A stretch of 64,000 nucleotides of DNA from Parcubacteria group bacterium (GTDB lineage: Bacteria > Patescibacteriota > Minisyncoccia > UBA10092): positions 187 through 64,186 of the forward strand of contig JACPLW010000001.1 of assembly GCA_016186325.1 (NCBI GenBank), written 5' to 3'. Under the pieces are notes generated by a model, which worked only from the letters and a program-made list of their open reading frames with translations, made no database searches and was not told the origin of the DNA. Position numbers and translations under genes: made by a program. Every line of letters begins with the position of its first letter. The stretch's first letter is position 1. Positions 104-61,689 of this stretch are shown in pieces.

Positions 104-187
104 TGCCCAGGGGGAGATTTGAACTCCCATGAGATTGCTCTCACAGCGCCCTGAACGCTGCGCGTATGCCAGTTTCGCCACCTGGGC
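104..187 (-). tRNA. tRNA-Leu (anticodon CAG), class II with long variable arm
   Basis: Reverse complement folds as acceptor GCCCAGG/CCTGGGC, 3-bp D stem, anticodon stem CAGCG/CGCTG with loop TTCAGGG, 14-nt variable arm, T arm GGGAG-TTCAAAT-CTCCC. The 3' CCA is not encoded. Confidence 0.8.
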
Positions 188-43452: not shown

Positions 43453-44247
43453 ATGTCTTTTCTTGAAGAACTAAAAATATTCATAAAAAATATTTTTTAT
43501 TGGATTCTGTCCTTTATCGGTTTTTCTTTTTTCTTTTTCGCTTTTGGTTTAAAAAAAGCGGCGATTTTCGGGCAAAATTATTTTCTGCCGCTGCCGACCG
43601 AAAATTCTTTTTCCGCGCAAGTTTTTAAAAAAATCAGGCACGATCTTCTTCCGCCGGACGTTGCTCTTATCGCCACCAATCCAATGAGCGCTTTTATATC
43701 CCAGATAACGCTTTCTCTGTTATTAGGTTTTTTGGTAACCGTTCCCTTTTTTCTTTATAAAATTATTATGTATCTCCGGCCCGCCCTTCTTTTTCGCGAA
43801 AGAAGGGCGGTAATGTTGTCTTTGCTGCCTTTTGTTTTTTTATTTTTTTCCGGTTCCGCGTTCGCTTATTTTTTTCTGATCCCGACCACCTTTAAAACGC
43901 TTTATCCGTACACCGCGGCTATCGGCGCGATTCCATTTTTTTCAATAAACGAATTTATGTATTATGTTTTCGGCCTTACTATTGCCACCGGGACTATGTT
44001 TTTACTGCCACTATTTATGGTCTTATTGAGCATTTTAGGGATTATACCGGCTTGGGTATGGAAAAAAAATTGGCGATACGCTAACTTTCTTTTTCTGGTT
44101 TTGGCCGCCATAATCACTCCGGATGGGACGGGAATCACTATGATTTTACTTTTCATTCCTTTGTCGTTCTTGTACTTTATAGGGTCTTTTTTTGCTGTTA
44201 AACTTAGTAATAGACATGCGACTATAAAAAAGGTCGAAAATTTGTAA
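43453..44247 (+). CDS. tatC: twin-arginine translocase subunit TatC
   Basis: Six-transmembrane topology with an MSFLEELKIF N-terminus, adjacent to tatA. Confidence 0.55.
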   Translation: MSFLEELKIFIKNIFYWILSFIGFSFFFFAFGLKKAAIFGQNYFLPLPTENSFSAQVFKKIRHDLLPPDVALIATNPMSAFISQITLSLLLGFLVTVPFFLYKIIMYLRPALLFRERRAVMLSLLPFVFLFFSGSAFAYFFLIPTTFKTLYPYTAAIGAIPFFSINEFMYYVFGLTIATGTMFLLPLFMVLLSILGIIPAWVWKKNWRYANFLFLVLAAIITPDGTGITMILLFIPLSFLYFIGSFFAVKLSNRHATIKKVENL

Positions 44248-44268: not shown

Positions 44269-44355
44269 ATGTTTGGACTAGGGTTTACGGAAATAACAAT
44301 AATTTTAGTCGCGGCAGCCGTCGTAATTTATTTTTTTTACTGGAAAAAAAAATAG
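44269..44355 (+). pseudogene. truncated duplicate of the tatA 5' end (28 codons)
   Basis: MFGLGFTEITIILVAAAVVIYFFYWKKK. The ~60-bp block AATAACAATATGTTTGGACTAGG... is repeated at 44255 and 44370. Confidence 0.4.
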
Positions 44356-44384: not shown

Positions 44385-44579
44385 ATGTTTGGACTAGGTA
44401 TCCCCGAAATAACAATAATTTTAATCGCGGCGGTGATTTTCTTTTTTGGCGGGGAAAAACTATCGGAATTGGCGAGGGCGTTGGGCCGGTTTACCGGAGA
44501 ATTTAAAAAAGGCAAAGCGGAAATGGAAAAAGAAATAAAAAAAGTCGAAAAAGAATTTAAATCTGATAAAAAATCGTAG
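44385..44579 (+). CDS. tatA: twin-arginine translocase subunit TatA/E
   Basis: MFGLGIPEITIILIAAVIFFFGGEKLSELARALGRFTGEFKKG is canonical TatA. Confidence 0.75.
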   Translation: MFGLGIPEITIILIAAVIFFFGGEKLSELARALGRFTGEFKKGKAEMEKEIKKVEKEFKSDKKS

Positions 44580-44588
44580 TAAACGAGG

Positions 44589-44711
44589 ATGGATCCCGTT
44601 AGAGATTCAGGCCTTGTTTAGATCTGACGGGTATCATAAATTATCAAAACATGTTAAATCACGTATTAGACTTAATAACGGAAACGAAAGTTTCCTATCT
44701 CTAACGGGATG
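44589..44711 (+). repeat. start-codon-embedded inverted-repeat element, copy B (arms 44594-44606 and 44697-44709)
   Basis: ATGGATCCCGTTAGAGAT ... ATCTCTAACGGGATG. The A-to-G change is compensated in both arms. The 3' ATG is the start of the Tat-signal ORF. Confidence 0.6.
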
Positions 44712-44939
44712 GATGAAAATAGAAGAAAATTCCTTAAAATAATACTGATTGGCGGCGGGGCTATTTTAGCGGAGAAGGTTTTAACTCCTCTGTTTTCGTT
44801 TCTAAATGATTCATCCGCCAAAACCGGTTTGCTTAATAAAACCAGTTTTGGGAATTTTAAAATTGTGGAAAATAAAGAAAAACTGTCTATTCGCGACAGT
44901 TCGGGAGAAGAAATATTTCAAATTGATGATGAGGCGTAA
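44709..44939 (+). CDS. small protein with twin-arginine (Tat) signal peptide
   Basis: MDENRRKFLKIILIGGGAILA matches the RRxFLK Tat motif and lies directly downstream of tatA. Confidence 0.35.
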   Translation: MDENRRKFLKIILIGGGAILAEKVLTPLFSFLNDSSAKTGLLNKTSFGNFKIVENKEKLSIRDSSGEEIFQIDDEA

Positions 44940-44959
44940 AATTTCATTACAATAAATCA

Positions 44960-45062
44960 ATGGTCCCGTTAGAAATTTATAAAATATAACCTGCCGGGAC
45001 TATAAATCAGTAATTATTTTTGATAAATTATAATAAATTAAACATAGATTTCTAACAGGATG
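44960..45062 (+). repeat. start-codon-embedded inverted-repeat element, copy C (arms 44964-44976 and 45048-45060)
   Basis: ATGGTCCCGTTAGAAAT ... ATTTCTAACAGGATG, with one C/A mismatch in the stem. The 3' ATG is the start of the next ORF. Confidence 0.55.
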
Positions 45063-45551
45063 GCAGAAAAAATAGAATGTAAAAATCATGAATGGATCCC
45101 TCTTTTAGGGATTAATAAGGGAAAAGGCGTTGTTACCTCTCTTTTTACTTGTCTAAAATGCGGAGACCTTAAAGTCGGCGAACAGACCATTAAAATTTCT
45201 CAATATCGTCTGGATATGGGCGAACTGCCCATAAATAATGTTCTCGGCATTAAATTGGTTGAATCGCCGACGGCCAATCAAACTGCTTCCGGACTCATAG
45301 TTAGTATGACCTATGGCGAATCTATTACTTTAGGCGACCTTTTATATTTCAAATCGGACGAAAAAGTTTATAAGGCGGACGCGAACGGGGCTTCCACTTA
45401 TCCGGTGGCGGGTTTGGCTTTGGCCACCGCGAGCAGCGGGTCAAACAATGTCCTCTTGCACGGTATTTACAGAGACAGCGTTAAATGGACCGGAGGAAGC
45501 GTCTTAACTGTTGGGGCGTTTGTTATCTGTCAACTACAGTGGGAGGAATAA
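45060..45551 (+). CDS. hypothetical protein (N-terminal C4 cluster)
   Basis: 163-aa ORF. Confidence 0.3.
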   Translation: MAEKIECKNHEWIPLLGINKGKGVVTSLFTCLKCGDLKVGEQTIKISQYRLDMGELPINNVLGIKLVESPTANQTASGLIVSMTYGESITLGDLLYFKSDEKVYKADANGASTYPVAGLALATASSGSNNVLLHGIYRDSVKWTGGSVLTVGAFVICQLQWEE

Positions 45552-45661
45552 CCCAATCTCAACCTGCGGCGACAAACGATGTAATTCAGGTTGTCGGAAT
45601 CGCCACCCACACCGACACTATTAATTTCAATCCGTCCGCGGACTATATTACTCATACATAA

Positions 45662-45757: not shown

Positions 45758-46675
45758 ATGCTTTCAATAGCAATACCAAGCAGAAACGAAATATTTTTGA
45801 GAAAAACAATTCTTGATGTATTGGCTAACGCTACCGGAGAAATTGAGATTTTTCCTGTTCTGGACGGATATGAACCGCCAAGCGAAGAAATTGTTGATGA
45901 TCCCAGGGTTCATTATTTGCGGATTCCTTTAGGGGATGGGAAATGCCATAAGCGCCAGGGCATAAACATGATGGTCGATGTATGCAAGGGAGAATACGTT
46001 TCTTCTCTGGATGCGCATTGCATGATGGCCAAAGGATTTGACGAACAGTTAGCCAAAGATCATCAGCCAAACTGGGTGCAAGTTCCTCGCAGGCACAGAT
46101 TAGACGCAGAAAATTGGTGTCTGCAAACCCAGTCCGATAACCGGCCGCCAATTGACTATGAATATCTAATGTTTCCCTTGAATTATCACCGCATGTCAGG
46201 CTCGCCCAAAGAGCCAAAGAAAGATTACCATCCGGCATTGCACGGCTTTAAGTGGGACGCGAGAACTCTGGCCCGTTCCCACATCCCGACTGACGAAACC
46301 ATAACCATACAGGGAAGTTTTTGGTTTATGACCAAGGACTGGTTTCGCAAAATAGATTTAATGCAGATAGAAGGATTCAGCGGGTGGGGACAAGAAGGAG
46401 AGGAAATTTGTTTTAAAACCTGGTTATCGGGGGGTAAGGTGATGGTCAATAAGAATACTTGGTACGCGCATCTGCACAAGGGACCCAAATACGGCCGAAT
46501 GTATCATATGAGCAAGGAATCAATCAGGAAATGCAATAACTATTCATACGATTTCTGGGTAAACAATCGCTGGGAAAAAAGAATTCATGATTTTGAATGG
46601 CTTATCCAAAAGTTCTGGCCGCTGCCAAACTGGCCGGATAACTGGAAAGAACTTCTATCCAAATGGTCTCAATAA
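45758..46675 (+). CDS. GT-A-fold glycosyltransferase-like protein, paralog family A (copy 1 of 4)
   Basis: The IAIPSRNE N-terminus is typical of GT2 and precedes a VLDGY motif. Shares the C-terminal WLIxKFWPxPxWPxNWKE motif with 46663, 50033 and 54102. Confidence 0.5.
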   Translation: MLSIAIPSRNEIFLRKTILDVLANATGEIEIFPVLDGYEPPSEEIVDDPRVHYLRIPLGDGKCHKRQGINMMVDVCKGEYVSSLDAHCMMAKGFDEQLAKDHQPNWVQVPRRHRLDAENWCLQTQSDNRPPIDYEYLMFPLNYHRMSGSPKEPKKDYHPALHGFKWDARTLARSHIPTDETITIQGSFWFMTKDWFRKIDLMQIEGFSGWGQEGEEICFKTWLSGGKVMVNKNTWYAHLHKGPKYGRMYHMSKESIRKCNNYSYDFWVNNRWEKRIHDFEWLIQKFWPLPNWPDNWKELLSKWSQ

Positions 46676-47499
46676 TAATTCCATCAAGAAACGAGATATT
46701 TCTCGAAAAAACGGTCAAAGGTCTTCTCGATAACTGTACCGGTGAGTTTGAAATTCTCGTTGTCTTGGATGGCTACAATCCCCCGGAGAGAAATTCTGAT
46801 TCGAGGGTCAAGTACATTCTTCATGAAGATAGCGTTGGTATGAGGGCGGGCATAAATTCCGCCGTGAAGATCGCCAAAGGCGAATTCTTGATGAAAATCG
46901 ACGCGCATTGCGTTGTAGACAAAGGTATAGATGAGAAACTGGCGGCGGATTGCGGGGATAATACGGTTATGATACCGAGGAGATACAAGCTGGACGACGA
47001 GAATTGGCGCGCCAATATGAATGAGACGCCGATTGATTACGAGCATTTCATATATCCCCTAAAATACGACCCGGTATCCCTTCACGGATTTAGGTGGAAA
47101 AGCAGAGCCGAAGAGCGAAAAGATATTTTAATAGACGATACTCTGACATTCCAAGGCTCATGCTGGTTTATGAAAAAGAGTCACTTCGAAAAGCACAAGT
47201 TTCTGAAGGTAAAAGAATTCCACGGCCTGCTTTACGGAGAGCCGGAGGAATTGGGATTGACCACGTGGCTTTCAGGAGGCAGGGTAGTGACGAATAAGAA
47301 AACCTGGTATGCGCACCTGTTCAAAGGGAAGAAATACGGGCGTGGCTATTTTATTGACAGAAATCAGGGCAGGGACTGCTATAGATATTCTTATAATTAT
47401 TGGGCTAACGAGAACAAAGAGGGTTTCATAAAGGTAATAGAAAAGTTCTGGCCGATTCCGGGATGGCCAGCTGACTGGAAAGAACGTTTATGGAATTAA
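46663..47499 (+). CDS. GT-A-fold glycosyltransferase-like protein, paralog family A (copy 2)
   Basis: MVSIIIPSRNEIFLEKT...VVLDGY with the shared C-terminal motif. Confidence 0.5.
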   Translation: MVSIIIPSRNEIFLEKTVKGLLDNCTGEFEILVVLDGYNPPERNSDSRVKYILHEDSVGMRAGINSAVKIAKGEFLMKIDAHCVVDKGIDEKLAADCGDNTVMIPRRYKLDDENWRANMNETPIDYEHFIYPLKYDPVSLHGFRWKSRAEERKDILIDDTLTFQGSCWFMKKSHFEKHKFLKVKEFHGLLYGEPEELGLTTWLSGGRVVTNKKTWYAHLFKGKKYGRGYFIDRNQGRDCYRYSYNYWANENKEGFIKVIEKFWPIPGWPADWKERLWN

Positions 47500-48140
47500 C
47501 AGTACTTTACTACACATCAAATAGAGAGGATGAATTTTTTGAGAATAAGGTTGTAGAAACAATAATACAGAACAAGGGAGGTTTGCCTGTGGTTTCTGTT
47601 TCTCAAAAACACATGAATTTTGGATATAATATCTGCGTGGGAACACAAGATAACTGCTACCATAATGAATTTCGCCAGATACAGTTAGGGTTGCTGGCCG
47701 TGAAGACGCCATATGTGATTATCGCCGAAGCAGATACGCTTTACCCGCCGGATTACTTTGCGTTCAGACCGCCAGAAAGAGGGCATGCTTATATGTATGA
47801 CAATGTATGGGTTCACTACACTCGATTCAACGGTAAACCTAAATTTTGGTTCAAAAAAAACAGTGATTGCGCTCAAGTAATCGACAGGAGTATGTGGTTG
47901 GAAAAGATCAATAAGGTCTTAGATTCGACCCCCAAATGGACATCAAAAGAAAATAAAGAATCTTATCGGATACAATATCGGGCAAATGGAGCGTGTATGT
48001 GGAACGGTAATCCGGTGGTCACATTCAAAACCCTCAATGGAGTTAAATCAAACACGGCTACCAAGAGGGGGGTTCCTCCACGATATAGCTTGCCATATTG
48101 GGGAAGCGCTATAGAACTTAGAAAACAAATGTTTACATGA
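47490..48140 (+). CDS. hypothetical protein, paralog family B (copy 1; paralog of 52085..52735)
   Basis: Shared YYTSNRE..FENK..VSQ..FG.NICVG motifs. Confidence 0.35.
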   Translation: MELTVLYYTSNREDEFFENKVVETIIQNKGGLPVVSVSQKHMNFGYNICVGTQDNCYHNEFRQIQLGLLAVKTPYVIIAEADTLYPPDYFAFRPPERGHAYMYDNVWVHYTRFNGKPKFWFKKNSDCAQVIDRSMWLEKINKVLDSTPKWTSKENKESYRIQYRANGACMWNGNPVVTFKTLNGVKSNTATKRGVPPRYSLPYWGSAIELRKQMFT

Positions 48141-48823
48141 AAAACTTAATGATTTACATAAATCCGTTAAAAGAATTTACCGAAGATTATATACGCCTGG
48201 TTAAGGTGCAGATAGATAATTCTATACGAACATGGGATAGAAAAGATATCTTATTGGTAACTAATTTCCCTTATTCCTACGGGGGGATTAATTCAATAGT
48301 GGTGCCCGATGACTTATTTTGTAACCATCGCAAAAGAGCCAGTAAGATAAATGTAATTTGCCACATGATGGATAACTACATGGTAGACGACATGTGCTGG
48401 TTTCATGATTTTGACGCGTATCAAGTTGATATATTTCCGGAAGATATATTAGGAAACAAAGACGCGGCCTTTACCGATTATGGGTTTAATACAATGTGGA
48501 ATACCGGAAGCTTCTTTTTTACCCAGAAAGCAAGGGATATTTTTGAACTTATCCGTCAGACTATGAACGCGAGGGTTGTAAATGAAGAAATAGCCTTAAG
48601 ATGGCTGACTTCTAGAAATATAAACAATATTAACGAACGGTATATAAAACTTAATAATACTTATAACTTGGGGCGAATGAGACACAATGAACTTACTTTT
48701 AAAAAAGCGGATAAACCCATTAAGGTATTCCATTTCCACCCCCGGATGACCCAGCTTTATGAAGAAGTTAAACCGCTTCTCCCAGATCATTTAATCGGAA
48801 TATTTGAAAAACATGGTTACTAA
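48137..48823 (+). CDS. putative glycosyltransferase (GT-A fold, HDFD DxD-like motif)
   Basis: 228 aa. Confidence 0.35.
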   Translation: MKNLMIYINPLKEFTEDYIRLVKVQIDNSIRTWDRKDILLVTNFPYSYGGINSIVVPDDLFCNHRKRASKINVICHMMDNYMVDDMCWFHDFDAYQVDIFPEDILGNKDAAFTDYGFNTMWNTGSFFFTQKARDIFELIRQTMNARVVNEEIALRWLTSRNINNINERYIKLNNTYNLGRMRHNELTFKKADKPIKVFHFHPRMTQLYEEVKPLLPDHLIGIFEKHGY

Positions 48824-48838
48824 AATTCATACTTCACA

Positions 48839-49492
48839 ATGGTAACGCTTCTTATAATGACAAATGGCCGCCGGGAATATCTAGAACGAACTTTGTCCAC
48901 ACTGGGGAAACTTCACGGTAATTTTTCGAGAATTCTGATTCATGACGATTCGGGAGATGAAGATTATCGTGATTGGCTTAAACAATTCGGCTACGAGCTT
49001 GCCACAACCCAGCGAGTCGGATTCACAAAGGCCATAGTTTCCGCATGGCAAAAACTCAAAGAAGATTCCAATGACTGGGTCTTCCACCTGGAAGACGACT
49101 TTATTTTTATGGAGGATATATATATTGACAACATGATTAATGTCATTAAAAATAACGACTATATCAAACAAATCGTGCTTCTCAGACAGCCGATCGGCAA
49201 CCGGGAGCGAAGAAAAGGAGGGATAATAGCTTCGCACCCTGAACGATATGAAGATAAAACTGACGGTACTAATTATTGGATAGAACATCGAGTTAATTAT
49301 TCTACCAATCCTTCTGTTTATAATAAATCTCTTATTTACGAACATCCTTGGCCAGATATGCCATATTCAGAACGTAAATACGGGCGAATGCTATTTAAGG
49401 ATCCAAATGCAAAATGCGCTTATTGGGGCAAAAGCACCGATAAGCCAAGAGTGATACATATAGGAGATGTTAGAAACGGATTTGGTTATTAA
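48839..49492 (+). CDS. GT2-like glycosyltransferase
   Basis: TLLIMTNGRREYLERTL N-terminus and an IHDDSGDED motif. Confidence 0.4.
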   Translation: MVTLLIMTNGRREYLERTLSTLGKLHGNFSRILIHDDSGDEDYRDWLKQFGYELATTQRVGFTKAIVSAWQKLKEDSNDWVFHLEDDFIFMEDIYIDNMINVIKNNDYIKQIVLLRQPIGNRERRKGGIIASHPERYEDKTDGTNYWIEHRVNYSTNPSVYNKSLIYEHPWPDMPYSERKYGRMLFKDPNAKCAYWGKSTDKPRVIHIGDVRNGFGY

Positions 49493-49495
49493 ATT

Positions 49496-50029
49496 ATGAA
49501 GTTTGATAAATACCGGAAAAAAGGGGCCTATCATTGGAAAATGTACGATGAGGACAGATATTACCGCGAGCATGCGCATAGGATAAAGGAGTGGGTAAAA
49601 GAAAAAAATATTCTCGATATCGGCGCCGGGGATGGGAGAATAACTCACCTTCTGGGTATAATAGGAGTAGACGATGAACCGGAGGCGGTAAGGTTAGCAA
49701 TAGAAAAGGGGGCAAATGTGGTGCTTGGCGACGCCTATAATCTGACTTATAAAGATGAAGAGTTTGACTCCGTGCTTTTGGTAGATACGCTGGAACATTT
49801 CGAATTTCCGGAAAAGGCGCTCAAGGAAGCAAGGAGGGTTCTCAAATATTATATCTACATCGCCACGCCGCCGAGAGGCATGCTGGGAAGAATGGATAAA
49901 TATCATTATCAGGAATGGACGGAAGAAGAGCTCGTAAAGTTTGTCGAAGGGCAAGGGTTTACTCTGGAAGGCCGGACGCTTCTTGTTTTGAAAGAGCAGT
50001 GCATCTATGCTAAGTTTAAAAAATTATAA
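49496..50029 (+). CDS. class I SAM-dependent methyltransferase
   Basis: ILDIGAGDGRIT motif I. Confidence 0.55.
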   Translation: MKFDKYRKKGAYHWKMYDEDRYYREHAHRIKEWVKEKNILDIGAGDGRITHLLGIIGVDDEPEAVRLAIEKGANVVLGDAYNLTYKDEEFDSVLLVDTLEHFEFPEKALKEARRVLKYYIYIATPPRGMLGRMDKYHYQEWTEEELVKFVEGQGFTLEGRTLLVLKEQCIYAKFKKL

Positions 50030-50032
50030 CTT

Positions 50033-50929
50033 ATGTTATCTGTAATAATTCCATCAAGAAGCGATGCTTATCTGCAAAAAACTGTAGATGATGTTTTAAA
50101 TAAGGCGAAAGGGGAGGTAGAAGTAGTTGTTGTGCTGGATGGTTATTGGCCCGGTACGATGGTAAGAGATGATAAGCGGGTTATAGTAATACACCACGGA
50201 GAACTACGTTCAAATTTCGGACTTCGAACGAGTGTAAATAGAGGCGTATTGGTTTCCAGAGGAAAATATATAATGAAAATAGACGACCATGTCGCTCTTG
50301 ATGAAGGATTTGATGTAAAGTTGGCCGCTGATTGTAAAGATGATTGGGTTGTTGTTCCAAGATTGTATGCATTAAAAGATGAAGGCTGGACCAAAGATAA
50401 CGCCGGCAGAGCGCCGTTTGACGCGGGATACGTGACATATCCTCTCAAAGATGGCACACTCTCCGGCAAGCCGTGGTCGGGGTGGCTTGAGAGCAGGAAA
50501 GAGATATTGATAGATGATTGCATGCTTTCGGCCGGAGCGTGCTATTTTATGAAACGGGAGCATTGGAATAAACTTGGCCTGCTTGATGAAAAGAATTATG
50601 GCGCCTTTCCATCTTTTGAGAACTTGGAGGTATGCCTCAAGACATGGCTAGGCGGCGGCAGAGTGGTAACAAATAAAAAAACCTGGTGCGCGCATAGATG
50701 GGGAGAAAGGGGACCCAAACATAAAGGTTGGGATTATTCAAATGAACAAGTCAGAAAAATACACGAGAATAGACGTGCGGCAATAAATTATACGAACGAT
50801 TTTTGGTTAAACAACAAATGGCCGGACAGAATCTACGATTTTGACTGGCTTATAGATAAATTCTGGCCGGTTCCCGACTGGCCCGAGAATTGGAAAGAAG
50901 AAATAAGAAAATGGTCACAGCAGCCATAA
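50033..50929 (+). CDS. GT-A-fold glycosyltransferase-like protein, paralog family A (copy 3)
   Basis: MLSVIIPSRSD...VVLDGY with the shared C-terminal motif. Confidence 0.5.
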   Translation: MLSVIIPSRSDAYLQKTVDDVLNKAKGEVEVVVVLDGYWPGTMVRDDKRVIVIHHGELRSNFGLRTSVNRGVLVSRGKYIMKIDDHVALDEGFDVKLAADCKDDWVVVPRLYALKDEGWTKDNAGRAPFDAGYVTYPLKDGTLSGKPWSGWLESRKEILIDDCMLSAGACYFMKREHWNKLGLLDEKNYGAFPSFENLEVCLKTWLGGGRVVTNKKTWCAHRWGERGPKHKGWDYSNEQVRKIHENRRAAINYTNDFWLNNKWPDRIYDFDWLIDKFWPVPDWPENWKEEIRKWSQQP

Positions 50930-50938
50930 TTACAATAT

Positions 50939-51430
50939 ATGGGTAAAAATATAATTGAATGGGGGACTCACTTGCCGCTCTTGGTGAGAATGTTTGATAA
51001 AACCGAAGGCGATGTTTTGGAGATGGGAATGGGGCATTTTTCCACTCCGGTATTAAAATGGCTTTGCGAGATGAGCGGAAGAACTTTGTATTCCTATGAA
51101 AGCAAAATGGATTGGTATGAAAAAGCTGCTAGCGAAAGCAAGCCTTTTCATAAAGTGATTTTTTGCCAAGATTGGGCAAGCGCGGATATAGAACGGCATT
51201 GGGGGCTGGCTTTTATAGACCATAGTCCGATGAGGGAAAGATATATTGACATAAAAAGGCTGGCCAATTATGCCGACATTATTGTCATACATGATACGCA
51301 ACCGCAAAGCGACTGGGTTTATCGCTACAGCAAAATTTTCCCTTTATTCAAATACCGTCTGGATTTTTCTAAATATATTCCCTGGACAAGCGCGGTCAGT
51401 AATTTTATAGATGTTTCAAAACTTGGTTAA
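50939..51430 (+). CDS. hypothetical protein (possible methyltransferase-like)
   Basis: VLEMGMGHFST. Confidence 0.3.
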   Translation: MGKNIIEWGTHLPLLVRMFDKTEGDVLEMGMGHFSTPVLKWLCEMSGRTLYSYESKMDWYEKAASESKPFHKVIFCQDWASADIERHWGLAFIDHSPMRERYIDIKRLANYADIIVIHDTQPQSDWVYRYSKIFPLFKYRLDFSKYIPWTSAVSNFIDVSKLG

Positions 51431-51443
51431 AAAAATTCTCGAT

Positions 51444-52088
51444 ATAAATATGAAAAAAGTCTGTCTTGACCTCCACGATTTTAGTGTTGTGAATAATCGG
51501 CTAGACCTTTTGTTGAAACTTAAGGAGCATTTTCCCGGCTTTAAAATTTCTCTTTTTACCGTCGCTTCGGATATAAGCGCGGATTGGGGGCCGTTTTGTA
51601 TTCGGAAAGATATGCTCAAAGAAATCAAAAAACATCTTGATTGGATACAGATAATTCCGCACGGTTTAACCCATAATAAAGATCTGGAATTCTGCGATTA
51701 CGATATTTTCAAGTATGAAATTATGCCGGCCGTTACAGCTGCTTTTGAAAAGGACGGTCTGCCTTTTCAAAAAGGTTTCTGCGCGCCCCATTGGAGGTGG
51801 AGCGAGGGCGTGGTGAGGGCGCTGGATGAAGAAGGATGGTGGGGAGCGGTGGACAGAAACCAGCCCCAAATGCTTTCTACCAAAAAGTTTTATAAATGGT
51901 CGCATAGTTTGCATGAGCCTTACCATGATTTTAATACTGAAGTTTTAAAACTTCACGGCCATGTTTATGGACTCAAAAATGATTTAGGCAAATGCCTTCC
52001 CGCTTTATTAAAACTGCCCCAATCGGTTGAGTGGCATTTTGTGACTGATTTTTTGGAAGACTTAAATGGGGGACAATTACACGCATGA
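51444..52088 (+). CDS. hypothetical protein
   Basis: The internal ATG (MKKVCLDLHDF) is preferred over the track start at 51411. Confidence 0.3.
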   Translation: MNMKKVCLDLHDFSVVNNRLDLLLKLKEHFPGFKISLFTVASDISADWGPFCIRKDMLKEIKKHLDWIQIIPHGLTHNKDLEFCDYDIFKYEIMPAVTAAFEKDGLPFQKGFCAPHWRWSEGVVRALDEEGWWGAVDRNQPQMLSTKKFYKWSHSLHEPYHDFNTEVLKLHGHVYGLKNDLGKCLPALLKLPQSVEWHFVTDFLEDLNGGQLHA

Positions 52089-52735
52089 AACCAGCGATAA
52101 TATATTACACATCAAACAGGGAAAAAGAAGAGTTTGAAAACAAAATCAGGCAGAATATCCTGAATGTTTGTGGCGGAATACCTATTATTTCCGTATCCCA
52201 AAGGCCAATAGATTTCGGAAAAAATATATGTGTCGGCGAAGTCGGCATTAATGACGATAATTTATTCAGGCAAGTCCAAATTGCTTGTCAGAACACGGAT
52301 GCCGATTACATAATATCTACGGAGTCGGATGTCATTTATCCCAAGGATTACTTCAAATTTATTCCCTCGCGCCTGGATCAAGTTTACAGAAGCGACAACA
52401 TATGGATTTTATACAAAACAAGGCCGGGGTATCATAAAAAAGAATATTCTGAAGGGGGCCAGATAATCGGTAGGGAATTTTATCTATCTATACTTGAAGA
52501 GGCGCTTCAAAATTTGCCCATGTGGAATCATTCCACCTTGTATGTTAACGGAGGTTCCAATAAAATAAGAAATCCTTTCGTAAAATTTAGATGGGAATAT
52601 TTTCATACCGACCCTATCATAAGCGTAAAAACCGGCGATGGGTTAAGGCATTTCGGAGGAATGTCGCATGGGCGCGAAGAAGACCTGCCTATTTGGGGAA
52701 ATCATGAAAAATTAAAAAAAGAATTCTTTATTTAA
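52085..52735 (+). CDS. hypothetical protein, paralog family B (copy 2)
   Basis: Paralog of 47490..48140. Confidence 0.35.
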   Translation: MKPAIIYYTSNREKEEFENKIRQNILNVCGGIPIISVSQRPIDFGKNICVGEVGINDDNLFRQVQIACQNTDADYIISTESDVIYPKDYFKFIPSRLDQVYRSDNIWILYKTRPGYHKKEYSEGGQIIGREFYLSILEEALQNLPMWNHSTLYVNGGSNKIRNPFVKFRWEYFHTDPIISVKTGDGLRHFGGMSHGREEDLPIWGNHEKLKKEFFI

Positions 52736-53341
52736 ATGGATACGCTAAATTTTATTTGCAATCGATATAAAATTGATTTAAACGAAACTTCGTCTCCAAT
52801 TAAAATACCCGTGAGCCGGTGGCATGACATGGGTTGTTTATTCAACGATCTAGGATTTAGAAAAGGAGTTGAATTGGGGGTATATAGAGGGAACTTCACG
52901 AGTAGGATAGCTAAGAAAGCTCCCAATTTGGAGTTGATAGGCGTTGACGCTTGGACTGCTTACCCCGGTTACAATGATTATGACGCAAAGGACTTAGAAA
53001 ATGAGGCCTATGTTGAAGCGATGGCAAGGACCAAAGGATATAAAAATGTAAAATTTATCAAAGGCTGGTCTCTCGATGTCGTTAAGCGGTTTGAGAACGA
53101 GTCGCTGGATTTTGTCTTTATTGACGCAAACCATAATTACGAATATGTGGTTGCCGATATCGCGTCTTGGAGCAAGAAAGTCCGCAAAGGAGGCCTGGTG
53201 TTGGGACATGATTATTTTAAAAATCGCAAGTATAATTTTGGAGTCGTAGAAGCCGTAAATGGCTGGTGTTCCGCTTATGACATAAAACCATTATTTACGT
53301 GGGCGGATAAATGTCCATCGTGGATGTATGTAAAAAGATAA
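52736..53341 (+). CDS. class I SAM-dependent O-methyltransferase (TylF/MycF-like)
   Basis: VELGVYRGNFT and FIDANHNYEYV motifs. Confidence 0.5.
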   Translation: MDTLNFICNRYKIDLNETSSPIKIPVSRWHDMGCLFNDLGFRKGVELGVYRGNFTSRIAKKAPNLELIGVDAWTAYPGYNDYDAKDLENEAYVEAMARTKGYKNVKFIKGWSLDVVKRFENESLDFVFIDANHNYEYVVADIASWSKKVRKGGLVLGHDYFKNRKYNFGVVEAVNGWCSAYDIKPLFTWADKCPSWMYVKR

Positions 53342-53342
53342 T

Positions 53343-54089
53343 ATGAATCCGACTAAAATATCCATTATTATAGCGATTTATAATAGCCATGGAGCTGTGG
53401 CCAGGCAAGTGAAGCATTTCAAGGCGATGAATTTGCCGGATGATATTGAGTTTATTTTTATGGACGATGGCAGCAACCCGCCGCATAAAATTGAGGATTA
53501 CGAACTTTCGAACCTGCGCATTCATTACACTAACGATAAGCGTCCTTGGACCCAAGGTCTGGCCCGCAATGCCGGCGCCAAATTAGCGAAGGGAGAGTAT
53601 CTTTTTTTTACAGATATTGACCACATAATTTCAAAAGAAGCTATTGAAGCGGTTTATGAATTTACGGGCGATAAAATGGTTTTTCCGCGCCACTTCGGAG
53701 TTTTACTGGAAGACGGCGTTCTTTCCCAAGAGCCATCAGTTTTAGAAGAGTATGGCATGGATATGGGAAGGCTGAAAACTGAAAGGGGCTTATACGCCAG
53801 CGTTCACGGGAATACTTATGCTATAAAAAAGACGACATTCGAAAGGATTGGGGGCTATTCGGCCAGATACTGCACTTACGGCCACCACGCTCCTTCAAGA
53901 GGAGGAGAAGACGGTCATTTTAATCATTTGTGGAATCGTTATGCCAAAGCTAACGGTATACAATCAATTTGGGGCCCCAAGATATATATTTTCCCAATCG
54001 GCCAATATCATGTGCGAGGTGATTTAAATCCCAAAGGTTTATTTCATAATTTAAGCCATGATCAGGCCCCGCAGCCTCTAAAAGAATGA
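53343..54089 (+). CDS. GT2-family glycosyltransferase
   Basis: ISIIIAIYNS...IFMDDGSNPP. Confidence 0.5.
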   Translation: MNPTKISIIIAIYNSHGAVARQVKHFKAMNLPDDIEFIFMDDGSNPPHKIEDYELSNLRIHYTNDKRPWTQGLARNAGAKLAKGEYLFFTDIDHIISKEAIEAVYEFTGDKMVFPRHFGVLLEDGVLSQEPSVLEEYGMDMGRLKTERGLYASVHGNTYAIKKTTFERIGGYSARYCTYGHHAPSRGGEDGHFNHLWNRYAKANGIQSIWGPKIYIFPIGQYHVRGDLNPKGLFHNLSHDQAPQPLKE

Positions 54090-54101
54090 AAATCGTAATT
54101 T

Positions 54102-55769
54102 ATGAAATACAACCTAAGCATTCTTATCCCCGCTCGCAACGAAGAATTCCTCAAAAAAACAATTGAGGATATTTTGAGCAACATTGAAGGAAATACGGAA
54201 ATTATCGCCGTCTTAGACGGCTATGAGACAGAACTGCCGGACGATCCAAGATTGAAAGTAATATGCAATCCGGAAAGCAAGGGCCAACGGGCCGCTACCA
54301 ACCAGGCCTGCCGGCTTTCGGAAGCAAAATATATAATGAAATGCGACGCTCATTGCGCTTTTGACAAAGGATTTGACGTCAAGATGACAGCCGAAATGAA
54401 AGATAACTGGACGATGATTCCGGTTATGAGGAATCTCCATGCTTTTAATTGGGTTTGTCCGGACGGGCATAGCAGATACCAAAGTCCTTCCGGCCCGTGC
54501 AAAGAGTGCGGCAAGCCCACAATCAAGGATGTGGTCTGGATAGCGAAAACAAACCCGCAAAGCACCGCTTATTGTTTTGATCAGGAACCGCATTTCCAAT
54601 ATTTCAGAGGATTCAAAAAGCGTCCCGAATATAAAAAAGATTTAGAAATAAATTTAACGGAAACAATGTCTATTCAGGGCTCTTGTTTCATGCTTACTCG
54701 CGACAAATACTGGGAACTAAATATTTGTGACGAATCTTTCGGCTCATGGGGTTCGCAGGGGATTGAAGTGGCATGTAAAACATGGCTTTCAGGAGGCAGG
54801 GTAGTGGTTAATCACAAAACATGGTATGCCCACATGTTCAGGACGCAGGGCGGCGATTTTGGTTTTCCTTATGAGAACCCGGGCAGTAAAGTCCAGCAGG
54901 CGAAGAAAACGGTAAGAGAAATATTTTTTGATAATAAATGGGACAAGCAAATCCGCCCGTTGTCATGGCTTATAGAAAAATTTTGGCCGGTGCCGGGCTG
55001 GACGGAAGAGATGAGAGCAAAAATCAAGGCCTGGCCGCTTCAGAATCAAAATCGTGGAATCAATGTTTCCACGATTTCGCCGGTCGCGCCGACTAAGGGC
55101 ATATTGTATTATTCGGACAACCGGCTAAATATCAAATTTGCCAAAACTATCAAGAAACAGATCGCAAAATCGGGGCTCAATATCACGTCAGTTACATTGA
55201 AGCCTACTAACTTCGGCACCAATTTTGTAGTAAGCGGGGAAAAGGGATATAAAACAATGTATAAGCAGATTCTCAAAGGTTTGGAAGAGATAAAGGAAGA
55301 CATCGTTTTTCTATGCGAGCATGATGTTCTGTACCACCCGAATCATTTCCTCTTTACCCCAACCGACAAAAACACTTTTTACTATAACGGCAACTATTGG
55401 TTTTTAAGACAGAAAGATGGCTTCGCGGTTCATTATAATGCCTCGCCTTTATCGGGGCTGGTGGTTTATCGGGAGGCGGCCATAAAACATTTCAGGGAGC
55501 GGGTAGAAATGATAGAAAAACTTGGCAACGATTATAGGCCTCGCCACATGGGTTTTGAGCCGTTTACGCACGGCAGGATTAGATGGAATTTTTGGTGTAA
55601 TTTTGAAAACTTTATGCCGGCGTTTCCTAATATAGATGTTTCTCACGGAGAAAATTCCACTTGGAAGCGCTGGAATCAAAAAGATTTCAGGCGCAAGCCG
55701 ACATTCTGGGAGGAGGGAAATATAGATACTATCCCCGGTTGGGATAATGTCAGAAAGTTGTTGGGGTAA
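54102..55769 (+). CDS. GT-A-fold glycosyltransferase-like protein, paralog family A (copy 4, with ~250-aa C-terminal extension)
   Basis: LSILIPARNEEFLKKT...AVLDGY. The last ~105 bp are duplicated at 57148-57262. Confidence 0.5.
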   Translation: MKYNLSILIPARNEEFLKKTIEDILSNIEGNTEIIAVLDGYETELPDDPRLKVICNPESKGQRAATNQACRLSEAKYIMKCDAHCAFDKGFDVKMTAEMKDNWTMIPVMRNLHAFNWVCPDGHSRYQSPSGPCKECGKPTIKDVVWIAKTNPQSTAYCFDQEPHFQYFRGFKKRPEYKKDLEINLTETMSIQGSCFMLTRDKYWELNICDESFGSWGSQGIEVACKTWLSGGRVVVNHKTWYAHMFRTQGGDFGFPYENPGSKVQQAKKTVREIFFDNKWDKQIRPLSWLIEKFWPVPGWTEEMRAKIKAWPLQNQNRGINVSTISPVAPTKGILYYSDNRLNIKFAKTIKKQIAKSGLNITSVTLKPTNFGTNFVVSGEKGYKTMYKQILKGLEEIKEDIVFLCEHDVLYHPNHFLFTPTDKNTFYYNGNYWFLRQKDGFAVHYNASPLSGLVVYREAAIKHFRERVEMIEKLGNDYRPRHMGFEPFTHGRIRWNFWCNFENFMPAFPNIDVSHGENSTWKRWNQKDFRRKPTFWEEGNIDTIPGWDNVRKLLG

Positions 55770-55845
55770 GTAAATACTCCTTATCCACAGCTAAAACTTG
55801 TGTTTTTTCGAAATACCGATTACAATTGAACTGGAGGTAACACCC

Positions 55846-56451
55846 ATGGTAGCTTCCAGTCCACATATGCAAAAATCAGAAATATTGAATATTTTAAGGG
55901 CGAACAACACAGTCTTCACATTCAAGGAGATTCTTTTGGCATCCGAAGGAACAAACACCTTGTTATTAAAAAGAAGGTTGAATTATTATGTCAAAAAAGG
56001 TGAATTATACTCAATCCGGAGAGGATTTTATGCCAAGGACAAAAACTACGATAAGCTTGAATTAGCGACTAAGATTTACACCCCTTCCTATATAAGTTTT
56101 GAGACGGTTTTAAGACAGGCCGGTATGATATTTCAGTATTATGAGAGAATTTTTATTGCCTCATACATTACCCGAGAAATTACTGCCGATAATCAGACCT
56201 ATGAATATAGGAGAGTAAAAGATACTATTTTGACCAATTCTGTTGGCATAGAAAAGAAAGAATATTACTCCATTGCTTCTCCCGAGCGCGCATTTCTTGA
56301 TGTGTTGTATGTTAGTAAGGATTATTATTTTGATAATTTGCGTTCTTTAAATTGGGATAAAGTGTTTGAACTGCTTCCTATTTACGCAAATAAACGAATG
56401 GAAAAAGTTGTAAATAAAATATTCAATGGCGCTCAACATCGCAATTCATAA
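55846..56451 (+). CDS. type IV toxin-antitoxin system AbiEi-family antitoxin
   Basis: ~200 aa with a wHTH N-terminus. RBS GGAGGT lies 8 nt upstream of the ATG at 55846, and the 3' end overlaps the downstream toxin gene. Confidence 0.5.
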   Translation: MVASSPHMQKSEILNILRANNTVFTFKEILLASEGTNTLLLKRRLNYYVKKGELYSIRRGFYAKDKNYDKLELATKIYTPSYISFETVLRQAGMIFQYYERIFIASYITREITADNQTYEYRRVKDTILTNSVGIEKKEYYSIASPERAFLDVLYVSKDYYFDNLRSLNWDKVFELLPIYANKRMEKVVNKIFNGAQHRNS

Positions 56452-57142
56452 GAATATCATGATTAAGATATTGAAAGATATTTACTCCGATGCTACTATC
56501 GGTCCCATTTTAGCTTTCAAGGGTGGGACGGCGGCATATTTATTTTACGAATTAGATCGTTTTTCGGTGGACTTGGATTTTGACCTCTTGGATGCTGAAA
56601 AAGAAGATTATGTCTTTGAAAGAGTCAGAAATATTTTAGAGAAATATGGCACATTGAAAGAGGCCAGCAAGAAAAGATTTAATCTGTTTTACTTGCTCTC
56701 ATATTCTGAAAAAATTAAAGGTGGACAGAATATTAAGCTTGAAATAAATCGGAGGGATTTTAATTCTAAATATGAAGTAAGGTCGTATCTAGGTATTCCC
56801 ATGAAAATAATGGTGCGAGAAGATATGGCGGCTCACAAGATAGTCGCGATGTTTGAGAGATTTGGCACTACGAATCGCGACATCTTTGATGTTTGGTTTT
56901 TCTTGCAGAATGACTGGCCGGTCAACAAAGAGATTATAGAAAAACGAACCGGCATGTTGTTCAGGGAACTTTTAGAAAAATGTATTGAACTGCTTGAAAA
57001 GATGGACAACGGCAGCATATTATCTGGTATGGGAGAGCTTTTGACTCCAAAACAAAAAGATTGGGCCAGGGCAAAGCTTCGAACTGACACTATCTTTCTT
57101 TTAAAATTAAGATTAGAAAACGAAAAATCAATGAAATTCTAG
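56426..57142 (+). CDS. AbiEii/AbiGii-family nucleotidyltransferase toxin (DUF1814)
   Basis: FKGGTAAYLFY...RFSVDLDFD matches the AbiEii GGTA...R.S.DLDF nucleotidyltransferase motif. Confidence 0.55.
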   Translation: MALNIAIHKNIMIKILKDIYSDATIGPILAFKGGTAAYLFYELDRFSVDLDFDLLDAEKEDYVFERVRNILEKYGTLKEASKKRFNLFYLLSYSEKIKGGQNIKLEINRRDFNSKYEVRSYLGIPMKIMVREDMAAHKIVAMFERFGTTNRDIFDVWFFLQNDWPVNKEIIEKRTGMLFRELLEKCIELLEKMDNGSILSGMGELLTPKQKDWARAKLRTDTIFLLKLRLENEKSMKF

Positions 57143-57147
57143 TCGGA

Positions 57148-57262
57148 GAAGCGCTGGAATCAAAAAGATTTCAGGCGCAAGCCGACATTCTGGGAAGAAG
57201 GAAATATAAACACCATTCCCGGTTGGGATAATGCGAGGAAGCTGTTATCAAGAAGCCAATAA
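57148..57262 (+). pseudogene. orphan duplicate of the 3' end of the 54102..55769 gene
   Basis: ~85-90% nucleotide identity to 55664-55769. Translates as EKRWNQKDFRRKPTFWEEGNINTIPGWDNARKLL. Confidence 0.6.
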
Positions 57263-57272
57263 AATTAAAAAT

Positions 57273-57293
57273 TAAGGACGTCCGACGTCCTTA
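57273..57293. repeat. 21-bp palindrome TAAGGACGTC-C-GACGTCCTTA (copy 2), preceded by AAATTAAAAAT
   Basis: Seen in sequence. Confidence 0.8.
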
Positions 57294-57347
57294 ATATTGG
57301 CCTACTTAAATTGTTTATTATTAACATGTAACATAATGGTAAAAAAC

Positions 57348-58409
57348 ATGCAGAAAAGTAAAAAAATAAAAATCAAATTATTCCAGCCGTATGTTTCTCC
57401 GCTGGCCAGAAAAATGGTCCAAAAAGTTTTATCGGGAATCTGGATAGCCGAGGGCCCGATGGTAAAAGAATTTGAAAAAGAATTTGCCAAAAAATTCAAT
57501 CTGAAAAACGTTGCGGCAGTTAACTCCGGCACCAGCGCCTTAGAGCTGGCTTACGAACTCGCGGATATCAAATCGGGCGATGAGGTAATCACACCGGTTT
57601 TAACTTGCGTGATTACCAATGTTCCTTTGGTAAGGCGGGGAGCGAAAATAATTTTTGCCGATATAGATTACGATTTGAATATGAGTATTGAAGATGTCAA
57701 GAAAAAAATAACCCCAAGAACCAAGGCGATAGTTTTTATGCATTTCGGAGGAAATAACCGCGGGCTGAAAGAATTGATTAAAATATGCAAAGAACGGAAG
57801 ATTTGCCTCATTGAAGACGCCGCCCAAGCGGTCGGTTCCGATTTTTGGGGGAAGGCTGATTTTACCGCCGTCTCGCTTCAAGCGATTAAAATGATAACTT
57901 CCGGGGACGGAGGATTTTTGATATGTAAAAATAAAAAAGATTGCGACAAGGCCAAGCGGCTGCGCTGGTTCGGATATGACAGGGACAAAAGAGCAAAACT
58001 GGGAGATATTGATTTAAAAGAAGCCGGATACAAATATCAAATGTGCGATGTCGCGGCTTCTATAGGTTTGGGCAATTTGTTGTCTATTGATCCTGTTCTA
58101 GCCCATGGAAAACGCCTACAAAAAATTTATAAAAAATACGGACTGAAACCCCATGCCTGGGTATCGGTGGGTTTCACTGATAATTATAAAAAATTAAAAG
58201 AACTTTACGGCCGGGAGGGGATAGAAATAGGAAAAAATCATTTTCGTAACGATAAATACACTTTGTTCAAAAAATTTAGAACCCCTTTACCAATAATGAA
58301 CGAATTAGAGCATAGGTATTTTATTGTGCCAAGCCACTATGCGGTACCGGAAAAAATTGCCCATAAAATCGGCCGGATTTTTGTGAACAGTAAATTAAAT
58401 TTAAAATGA
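57348..58409 (+). CDS. DegT/DnrJ/EryC1/StrS-family PLP-dependent sugar aminotransferase
   Basis: EGPMVKEFEKEFAKKFN...AAVNSGTSALELA...PVLTCV. The internal ATG at 57348 is preferred. Confidence 0.65.
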   Translation: MQKSKKIKIKLFQPYVSPLARKMVQKVLSGIWIAEGPMVKEFEKEFAKKFNLKNVAAVNSGTSALELAYELADIKSGDEVITPVLTCVITNVPLVRRGAKIIFADIDYDLNMSIEDVKKKITPRTKAIVFMHFGGNNRGLKELIKICKERKICLIEDAAQAVGSDFWGKADFTAVSLQAIKMITSGDGGFLICKNKKDCDKAKRLRWFGYDRDKRAKLGDIDLKEAGYKYQMCDVAASIGLGNLLSIDPVLAHGKRLQKIYKKYGLKPHAWVSVGFTDNYKKLKELYGREGIEIGKNHFRNDKYTLFKKFRTPLPIMNELEHRYFIVPSHYAVPEKIAHKIGRIFVNSKLNLK

Positions 58410-58410
58410 A

Positions 58411-58800
58411 ATGACTGATTTAAATAATGAAAATCCGCCATGGTATTCCTCGTATGAGAAAAATAATTACGGAGATTTGTTTTACGCGCTGATGCGCATT
58501 TATAAACCCAAGAAAGTTGTTGAATTGGGTACTAAAGCTGGATACAGCGCTTACCATATAGCAAGGGGGCTTAAGGATAATAGAAGAGGCACTCTGGACT
58601 GTTATGACTTGTGGGAGAGGTATGAATTTAAATCGGTACCTAAATCGGTTGCCGAGAAAAATTTAAAAAAATTTAAAGATATCATAAAACTTAAACAGCG
58701 CGACGCGATTGGAGTAAATAAGTTATATAAAAAAATTGATATTTTACATGTTGATGTCAGTAATGAGGGCGGAATTTTAGAAAAAATAATACCGAACTAG
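58411..58800 (+). CDS. small class I methyltransferase-like protein
   Basis: VVELGTKAGYSAYHIARGL. Confidence 0.35.
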   Translation: MTDLNNENPPWYSSYEKNNYGDLFYALMRIYKPKKVVELGTKAGYSAYHIARGLKDNRRGTLDCYDLWERYEFKSVPKSVAEKNLKKFKDIIKLKQRDAIGVNKLYKKIDILHVDVSNEGGILEKIIPN

Positions 58801-58991
58801 ATAGATAAGACACGCCAGCTTATAATTATTGAAGGCGGCTCACTAGAACGCGACAAGGTTGAGTGGATGATAAAATATAAAAAGATACCGATAAGAAAAT
58901 GGCTTAAAAATTTCGCTGACAAGAATGGAGATATTGAATATTTGATGATAGAACCGTTTCCTTCCATAACTATTATCTGCAAATTAAAAAT

Positions 58992-59012
58992 TAAGGACGT
59001 CTGACGTCCTTA
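58992..59012. repeat. 21-bp palindrome TAAGGACGTC-T-GACGTCCTTA (copy 3), preceded by AAATTAAAAAT
   Basis: Seen in sequence. Confidence 0.8.
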
Positions 59013-59016
59013 GATT

Positions 59017-60141: not shown

Positions 60142-60187
60142 TTAACATATCGTTACTGATAATTCCTCGGAAATTTTTAAAACGAAA

Positions 60188-60808: not shown

Positions 60809-60811
60809 TTT

Positions 60812-61618: not shown

Positions 61619-61689
61619 ATCCCGTTAGAAATAAAAAATCAGAGATTTTTGCCGACACGTCTGAAGCGAGTCGGATTTCTAACGGGATG
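61615..61689 (+). repeat. start-codon-embedded inverted-repeat element, copy D (arms 61620-61632 and 61675-61687)
   Basis: The leading ATG overlaps the upstream TGA stop as ATGA. The 3' arm ends on the ATG at 61687 (MKILIGTPIH). The ORF track reads through the element in frame. Confidence 0.6.

Follow-up and report, generated by a model that had tools for sequence, protein, structure and literature searches.

The stretch of DNA analysed here, referred to as the window, comprises 64,000 nucleotides from a Parcubacteria group bacterium, and carries on its forward strand the genes tatC (43453-44247; PF00902, E = 2.5e-39; NCBIfam TIGR00945/TIGR01912) and tatA (44385-44579, stop codon at 44577-44579; PF02416, E = 2.3e-10; NCBIfam TIGR01411) of the twin-arginine translocation (Tat) system, followed by an open reading frame (ORF) of 76 amino acids (44709-44939, stop codon at 44937-44939) with an N-terminal RRKFLK motif, a hydrophobic helix and a small C-terminal beta domain, and by a further gene starting at 45060. 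As described in the first-pass annotation of this region, two inverted-repeat elements bracket the 76-aa ORF downstream of tatC-tatA, and each of them ends on an ATG; they are delimited here as copy B (44594-44709) and copy C (44964-45060). The nature and origin of these two elements are the subject of the present analysis.

Both copies are read on the forward strand. Copy B consists of a terminal T, a left arm (CCCGTTAGAGAT, 44595-44606), an interior, a right arm (ATCTCTAACGGG, 44697-44708) and a terminal A, and its arms, taken together with the adjoining AT, match each other perfectly (100%) over 14 nt (ATCCCGTTAGAGAT, 44593-44606; ATCTCTAACGGGAT, 44697-44710). The tatA stop codon is followed by ATGGAT with an upstream ATG at 44589, and the ATG of the 76-aa ORF (44709) comes directly after the right arm, beginning within the last two paired bases of the element, such that the terminal A of copy B is at the same time the A of the ATG. 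A target-site duplication (TSD), TGGA, flanks the element on the left (44590-44593) and on the right (44710-44713), the left one forming together with A44589 an orphaned original start codon. Two further features were recognized in its interior: a degenerate segment resembling the right arm (AGATCTGACGGG, 44620-44631), which can pair with the left arm in an alternative short hairpin, and a subterminal hairpin (GGAAAC-GAAA-GTTTCC, 44680-44695), which adjoins the right arm and marks a subfamily of about 115-119 nt. The predicted RNA fold of copy B has a free energy of -38.7 kcal/mol (z = -3.3), and its stem takes in the AU of the AUG. Copy C is built in the same order, with a terminal T, a left arm (44965-44976), an AT-rich interior, a right arm (45048-45059) containing one mismatch (CAGG) and a terminal A that doubles as the first base of the next gene's ATG (45060). 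Here the stop codon of the ORF is followed by ATGG with an upstream ATG at 44960, and the duplication is TGG (44961-44963 on the left, where it forms an orphaned start codon with A44960, and 45061-45063 on the right); the fold is less pronounced (z = -1.9). The predicted hairpins of both copies pair the A and U of the start codons that they precede. Both copies are also found in a second, independent assembly of this organism (L001) and hence do not represent an assembly artefact.

Related loci provide direct evidence that both copies were inserted. In seven of them the gene order tatC-tatA-ORF-next gene is kept and intact copies of B and C are missing; both copies are absent from L122-L127 as well as from L135-L137, the latter being three more distant relatives. 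At the loci with the most similar ORF homologues (protein identities of 87%, 71%, and 62%), the same genes follow one another in the same order, including a very small ORF between tatC and tatA that is described below, with spacers of only 2-21 nt at the sites occupied by B and C in the window. The empty B site reads ATGGATGAAAAT (in L122, gacATGGATGAAAAT), to be compared with ...ATGGA-T[CCCG...CGGG]A-TGGATGAAAAT in the window, and the empty C site reads ATGGCAGAAA (in L122, aatcaATGGCAGAAAA), that is, aatcaATGGCAGAAA in place of ...ATGG-T[CCCG...CAGG]A-TGGCAGAAA. It is from these empty sites that copies B and C can be seen to be flanked by duplications of 3-4 nt (TGGA and TGG). One relative at 70% identity (L134, 1201-1260) has a right-arm remnant alone (CCCCTAACGGG) before a mutated start codon, ATA, of its homologue of the 76-aa ORF, which is consequently called from an upstream ATG overlapping tatA and acquires the extension MKNQNLMENKTPNG; because the left arm has been lost, no hairpin is possible there. 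The spacer that follows the ORF homologue in L135 (840-960) contains another kind of tandem repeat, about 46 nt long (gagcgtagcgaacacttatgccgaggta...), which is unrelated to the CCCGTTAGA element.

The same element is not confined to the Tat region. By searching for the arm pair CCCGTTAGARRT...AYYTCTAACRGG, five loci were detected in the window (361-423, 22576-22672, 44595-44708, 44965-45059, and 61621-61686), and because none was found in 100 dinucleotide shuffles, the pairing of the arms is not due to chance. A relaxed arm scan detected six pairs (0-1 in 20 shuffles), the sole addition being the degenerate inner arm of copy B. All five copies form long hairpins (z from -1.9 to -9.7), and their interiors, 39-90 nt long, differ in sequence. 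The first copy (360-424), which has C..G ends, the duplication TCAA (356-359 and 425-428) and the most negative fold score (z = -9.7), lies in frame within a gene for a cupin-type glucose-6-phosphate isomerase (PGI; 187-1035, minus strand) and is read through as DPVRS...TSNGV. This insert of 23 amino acids is missing in most PGI orthologues; a related insert is present at the same place in an orthologue at 71% identity, and a 97%-identical one has a stump of 10 residues. The second copy (22575-22673, +; TSD TGA) separates the overlapping stop and start codons (ATGA) of rsmH and an ftsL-like gene, a junction that is a plain ATGA overlap in the relatives L131-L133. Similarly, the last copy (61620-61687, +; TSD TGAA; z = -5.8) interrupts an ATGA overlap, here between two glycosyltransferase genes. 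Its sequence can be read in frame without a stop from the orphaned upstream ATG (61615), and ORF callers therefore add 24 spurious residues (MNPVRNKKSEIFADTSEASRISNG, 61615-61686, +) to the downstream glycosyltransferase. In addition, a solo right arm (59056-59067, +) is directly followed by a GTG. It is probably a decayed copy located at the true start codon of a methyltransferase gene (GTG 59068); the ORF of this gene is called from ATG 59017 (+), and an upstream ATGAA resembles the left duplication of the decayed element. One CCCGTTAGA arm is also found just 5' of methyltransferase starts in two relatives (arm at 5775 and start at 5801 in L124; arm at 3986 and start at 4012 in L125). The sites of the element in the window, i.e., PGI, rsmH/ftsL, glycosyltransferases, and the tatA region, are functionally unrelated. 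Insertion is thus documented by empty sites at copy B, copy C and the rsmH/ftsL junction, as well as by the lack of the PGI insert in most orthologues.

We then examined how widely the element occurs, using an arm scan of genome contigs with one genome per species in which the arms were required to be intact. Identical arms were present at at least 120 loci. Among the matches listed, about 97 loci belong to Patescibacteria of many classes, and 23 are found in contigs labelled Planctomycetota, Omnitrophota, delta-/gammaproteobacteria, Nitrospirota, WOR-3, KSB1, and Stahlbacteria, one of these contigs being 1.24 Mb long. The genes beside the copies are unrelated housekeeping genes, in over 100 genomes. 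Three contigs labelled delta proteobacterium (L030, L062, and L105, from three genomes) share a subfamily of 92-93 nt with a near-identical interior (TTCCAGCGGGGCATTAAACC..GCCGGAATT...CAGAGCAGC..GGCATT), which suggests lineage-specific subfamilies outside Patescibacteria. Only 3 matches were found among 2.9 million viral contigs, and phage was rejected as the vector on this ground. One IMG/VR contig (L129) contains mini hairpins of about 29 nt that consist of arms alone (3436-3464 and 3961-3989; e.g., CCCCGTTAGAAAT-CCA-ATTTCTAACGGGG); GCAAGCC follows both of them and neither has an obvious duplication.

The anatomy of the family was deduced from 130 copies at 117 loci among the matches listed. 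The ends are inverted repeats of 13-14 bp (Y-CCCGTTAGARRT ... AYYTCTAACGGG-R), made up of 12 invariant nucleotides and a covarying terminal pair, and the interior is variable and largely self-pairing. The terminal pair beyond CCCG/CGGG is complementary in 97% of the copies (T..A in 74 and C..G in 52), and in 122 of 130 copies complementarity also extends to the two variable positions of the arms. Element size is about 60-145 bp (60-143 nt in the copies measured) and falls into three classes: one of about 60-69 nt, which contains two GC-rich hairpins, one of about 100 nt, and one of 115-119 nt with a subterminal hairpin whose stem shows compensatory changes (GGAAATC/GATTTCC, GGTCGTC/GACGACC, and GGAGGCG/CGCCTCC). 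Positions L-5 to L-2 of the left flank match positions R+2 to R+5 of the right flank in 73-83% of copies at each position; an exact 4-nt repeat flanks 83 of 130 copies and a 3-nt repeat another 9, and a nested copy in L095 has a 5-nt repeat. The duplication has the consensus T-N-N-A, with a purine on its left and a pyrimidine on its right, so that the target can be written as R|TNNA|Y, which is roughly palindromic. A duplication of 6 nt with later correction of the end positions was considered and rejected, as 17 of the 83 copies mismatch at both outer positions.

Arms of this kind could also be imagined as sites for a recombinase or another DNA-binding protein, such as integron attC sites, the repeats of an invertible promoter, or paired operators. 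They hold GTTAGAA and TTCTAAC, similar to the attC core GTTRRRY/RYYYAAC, and the taxa that carry the element include integron-rich groups. However, the box order is inverted on both strands, the 5' arm carrying GTTAGAA and the 3' arm TTCTAAC (attC has 5' RYYYAAC ... GTTRRRY 3'), and integron attC was rejected for this reason. In addition, the copies are solitary at housekeeping genes rather than organized in cassette arrays, their variable flanking duplications suit transposition, and the 40-95 bp between the arms are too short for ordinary inversion, making any explanation of this type highly improbable. With regard to known RNA families, only tRNAs in the window reach the gathering score of Rfam 15, which has no family for the element; at E <= 10, the elements match generic hairpin (miRNA-type) models alone, far below threshold.

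The copies are closely associated with start codons. Because the last base of the element (A or G) and a duplication usually starting with TG rebuild an ATG or GTG at the junction, 66 of the 130 copies lie immediately next to the first codon of an ORF that is 80 amino acids or longer. For elements with T..A ends the proportion is 64 of 74, the duplications being TGAA, TGGA, or TGAG. The window contains 378 ATGRA sites and 4,694 RTNNA sites, and about 25 of the former are real gene starts according to our own estimate, which is not a measured count. We estimate that a preference for ATGRA-like targets, together with the loss of gene-disrupting insertions, would put roughly 40% of the surviving copies on start codons.

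A smaller set of copies (23 of 130) lies within ORFs that read through the element. Among these, 19 are free of stop codons and have lengths that are multiples of three, as compared with 47 of 130 (36%) having such lengths overall. Since lengths keep the frame and stops are lacking, in-gene copies are translated, not spliced out or bypassed. This bears on the idea that the element is removed at the level of RNA or translation, be it as a small intron or through hopping of the ribosome, as known from T4 gene 60 and mitochondrial byp elements. In its favor, the element lies between identical codons (ATG NNA), the first of which is followed by a stable hairpin. But the constraint on frame and stops would be needed only if the copies are translated, the PGI insert is read as 23 extra residues, the orthologue at 71% identity has retained a related insert, and at start codons the downstream ATG is usable for initiation anyway. 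We consider removal of this sort scarcely credible.

Taken together, the element family is small, non-coding, multicopy and dispersed over loci and phyla. It has terminal inverted repeats and TSDs verified against empty sites, as do MITEs (miniature transposable elements bounded by inverted repeats), and it includes in-frame translated copies. Copies B and C are therefore best regarded, with good though not full confidence, as two independent and fairly recent insertions of a non-autonomous, MITE-like mobile element. According to the mechanism that we propose, the element would enter an R|TNNA|Y target and duplicate 4 nt (in a minority of cases 3 nt). Landing in the TG of A|TGNA, it would regenerate an ATG or GTG immediately behind itself and leave the old ATG orphaned upstream; such insertions survive because the protein is unchanged. 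Insertions inside genes would persist just when they are in frame and stop-free, in which case they would be translated. The copies near tatA would have been placed by the chance occurrence of target sequences (ATGGAT and ATGG), with no specific link to Tat. Movement may proceed by cut-and-paste, catalyzed in trans by a DDE-type transposase. In transcripts, initiation is probably dampened or modulated by the long hairpin, since the AU of the AUG is paired in it.

A tentative candidate for the mobilizing enzyme would be one similar to those of IS1380/piggyBac, given the CC(C) ends, the 4-bp T..A duplication and TAGAAA in the repeat, although none was found. The ends of IS1380/piggyBac elements begin with CC(C), their duplications are 4-5 bp or TTAA, and piggyBac excises precisely, which would suit the clean empty sites; the piggyBac repeat CCCTAGAAAGATA may be set beside CCCGTTAGAAAT of the present element. 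The latter differs in having an extra Y/R base outside CCCG and duplications that are not limited to TTAA, and no such transposase was detected with it.

Several observations weigh against the explanation by insertion of a MITE-like element. Neither a transposase nor an autonomous copy was found in the window (Pfam search of 30 window proteins) or close to the solo arms, and none recurred in 933 kb of flanking sequence, arm pairs being searchable in the genome collection only up to 600 nt apart. All-against-all clustering of 1,024 ORFs from these flanks yielded housekeeping families only, and the solo arms turned out to be copies with one mutated arm. Identical 12-nt arms over several phyla are unusual for a MITE; part of this conservation reflects ascertainment bias, because the search required intact arms. 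The right-arm remnant at the same ORF start in L134 implies either a recurrent target or an old insertion site. Moreover, elements with T..A ends are rare away from start codons (10 of 74, versus 35 of 52 for C..G ends), a scarcity that is not explained by survivorship alone. Finally, the elements are polar with respect to the downstream gene. Among 72 start-associated elements, an internal CGGG motif resembling the right arm stands beside the gene-distal arm in 32(+2) and is mirrored in 2(+2), and the distal arm pairs locally in 51 of 69 versus 32 of 69 for the mirror arrangement (p = 1.4e-4). Such a bias would not be expected from a symmetric transposase acting on a palindromic target. Either insertion is polar or the RNA matters.

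The polarity invites a reading in which the element is mobile but not neutral, acting as a polar, portable leader that supplies a start codon and a bistable RNA, tunes initiation and has its orientation kept by selection. We give this reading a low chance, well below that of simple insertion. It gains from the orientation bias and the excess of local pairing just described, from the position of the subterminal hairpin (gene-proximal in 14 cases, versus 4), from the enrichment of T..A ends at start codons and from the compensatory changes in terminal pairs and hairpin stems. On the other hand, presence/absence variation among close relatives speaks against necessity, and the bias could also stem from polar insertion or from selection against a harmful orientation. 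A promoter within the element was rejected, since -10-like motifs have no strand bias (54 sense versus 60 antisense of 80) and neither a promoter nor a terminator was called on the + strand inside B or C. In its most far-reaching form, which we put forward only tentatively, the element would be a start-codon-seeking mobile leader spread across phyla, with its own initiator base and a two-state hairpin, that rewires initiation at each landing. The two states might conceivably consist of the distal arm pairing with the internal partner, in which case the AUG would be free, or with the start-proximal arm, in which case it would be half-buried. The one-sided orientation could then perhaps be the footprint of that function or, again, of an insertion mechanism that reads gene starts, but we would not expect this to be the case. 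A leader function of this kind is compatible with insertion of a MITE-like element and adds a function to it.

A regulatory role tied to the Tat system itself is much harder to maintain. The first-pass annotation had proposed that the two hairpins give coupled, structure-gated expression of a Tat substrate next to the Tat machinery genes. In its favor, the A and U of each of the two start codons are base-paired in the predicted stems, the ORF always adjoins tatA and has an invariant RRxFL motif, and part of the element survives at the corresponding start codon of a second lineage (L134). However, in the seven related loci, where the synteny check suggested by that annotation could be made, the elements are missing while the gene order stays unchanged; the L134 remnant has no left arm with which to form a hairpin; and the same element occurs at rsmH/ftsL and glycosyltransferase genes, within PGI, and beside housekeeping genes in over 100 genomes. 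The specific Tat regulatory hypothesis is thus largely refuted, the hairpins not being part of the design of the Tat locus, and a cis-regulatory device gating or coupling translation of a Tat substrate with the Tat genes appears very unlikely. Because the hairpin pairs the A and U of the start codon, some generic effect on translation, unrelated to Tat, is possible.

In their behavior, the present elements are closest to the palindromic elements of Rickettsia and to MITEs such as Correia, from which they differ in range, start-codon rebuilding, interiors, and polarity. Rickettsia palindromic elements (RPEs) are short palindromic mobile repeats for which a transposase is not known (Ogata et al. 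2000, as summarised in PMC10969869). Compared by behavior only, they are alike in being dispersed in a small genome, often in frame within genes and translated as an extra peptide. Unlike RPEs, which belong to one genus, the present element has sharp terminal repeats of 13-14 bp, a 3-4 nt T..A duplication and half of its copies exactly on start codons, and it is found in Patescibacteria plus several other phyla. Bacterial MITEs, including Correia/NEMIS of Neisseria, ERIC and those derived from insertion sequences (IS), have terminal inverted repeats, short duplications and a size of 60-150 bp, their hairpin RNAs can affect neighboring genes, and they show presence/absence polymorphism between relatives (PMC10969869). 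Known MITE families do not extend beyond a genus or family, and a parent IS can usually be recognized for them, whereas the present element has identical arms across phyla, no parent IS that could be found, the ability to rebuild start codons, and very heterogeneous interiors, down to the 29-nt hairpins made of arms alone. No description of the element or its arms, nor of a relevant MITE from Patescibacteria or the candidate phyla radiation, was found in the searchable literature, and the MITE review PMC10969869 does not include such a family. Outside bacteria, some resemblance may be noted to other small repeats. The mobile GC clusters and byp elements of yeast mitochondria are small palindromic hairpins in AT-rich DNA and coding regions, with short flanking repeats and an unknown mobilizing enzyme. 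The byp elements are skipped by the ribosome, whereas the in-gene copies described here keep the reading frame and are translated, and their hosts are bacterial.

The 76-aa ORF is of interest in its own right. It has 35 homologues, all of about 76-97 amino acids, indicating a real conserved gene, and they are positioned just after tatC-tatA in every locus examined. In 26 aligned homologues, R5, R6, F8, and L9 show no variation, and conservation of K10 is at least 90%; the helix is followed by a variable linker and then by a conserved unit, FKIVENK..LSIYDSSGEEIFQID. An AlphaFold2 model of the protein places a helix at residues 3-30 and three strands at 51-73, with a mean predicted local distance difference test (pLDDT) score of 64. 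The first-pass annotation had called the N-terminus a textbook twin-arginine signal. This stands as far as the motif is concerned, since N-R-R-K-F-L-K-IILIGGGAILA agrees with S/T-R-R-x-F-L-K plus a hydrophobic stretch and RRxFL is invariant in the family. It does not stand for the signal profiles, as PF10518 and TIGR01409 gave no match to the ORF at E <= 0.01, and at E <= 10 they matched only 1 of 26 and 2 of 26 family members, respectively (E of about 0.1-0.2, below the curated cut-off). The best profile likeness of the family is to the uncleaved Rieske/PetC signal-anchor PF25471 (22 of 26 members, sub-threshold), and positions 2-39 of TIGR01416 (Rieske) are also matched, weakly and under the curated cut-offs. 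The likeness to this uncleaved twin-arginine signal-anchor consists in RR-x-F-L followed by one N-terminal hydrophobic helix; unlike Rieske/PetC proteins, the ORF product lacks a Rieske domain, its C-terminal part being a small beta unit of about 25 residues. Judged from its sequence, the ORF thus appears to encode a conserved small protein with a twin-arginine-like N-terminus resembling a Rieske-type signal-anchor, a view that is partly supported. Being conserved after tatA, this small RR-motif protein is a separate lead and may merit following.

Several other features of the neighborhood were noted. Between tatC and tatA, an ORF of 28 amino acids (MFGLGFTEITIILVAAAVVIYFFYWKKK, 44269-44355, +), here called mini-TatA, duplicates just the N-terminal transmembrane helix of TatA plus its upstream leader; it is also found in relatives (2676-2762 in L122, a 34-aa gene call in L124, and two copies in L137). 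The gene downstream of copy C (45060-45661, +) has a likeness to Phage_cement_2 (PF09956, E = 3.2e-4, below cut-off). Its product is 197-207 amino acids long and intact in relatives, and in the window the gene is split by a frameshift, located near 45510-45520 by tblastn against the intact 207-aa orthologue, which makes it either a pseudogene or the site of a sequencing error. On the 3' side of the Tat locus, a long run of glycosyltransferase, methyltransferase, and aminotransferase genes (45758-62909), representing a cell-surface glycan cluster, holds two copies of the element.

These elements have practical consequences for gene annotation. They create false N-terminal extensions, as in the ORFs called from 61615 and 59017 and in P0011 of a relative, they break ATGA stop/start overlaps, and they add peptide segments to enzymes such as PGI; annotators of Patescibacteria genomes need to recognize them. 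For the study of mobile DNA, they raise the questions of what mobilizes the element, how phyla are crossed, and why it is oriented with respect to genes.

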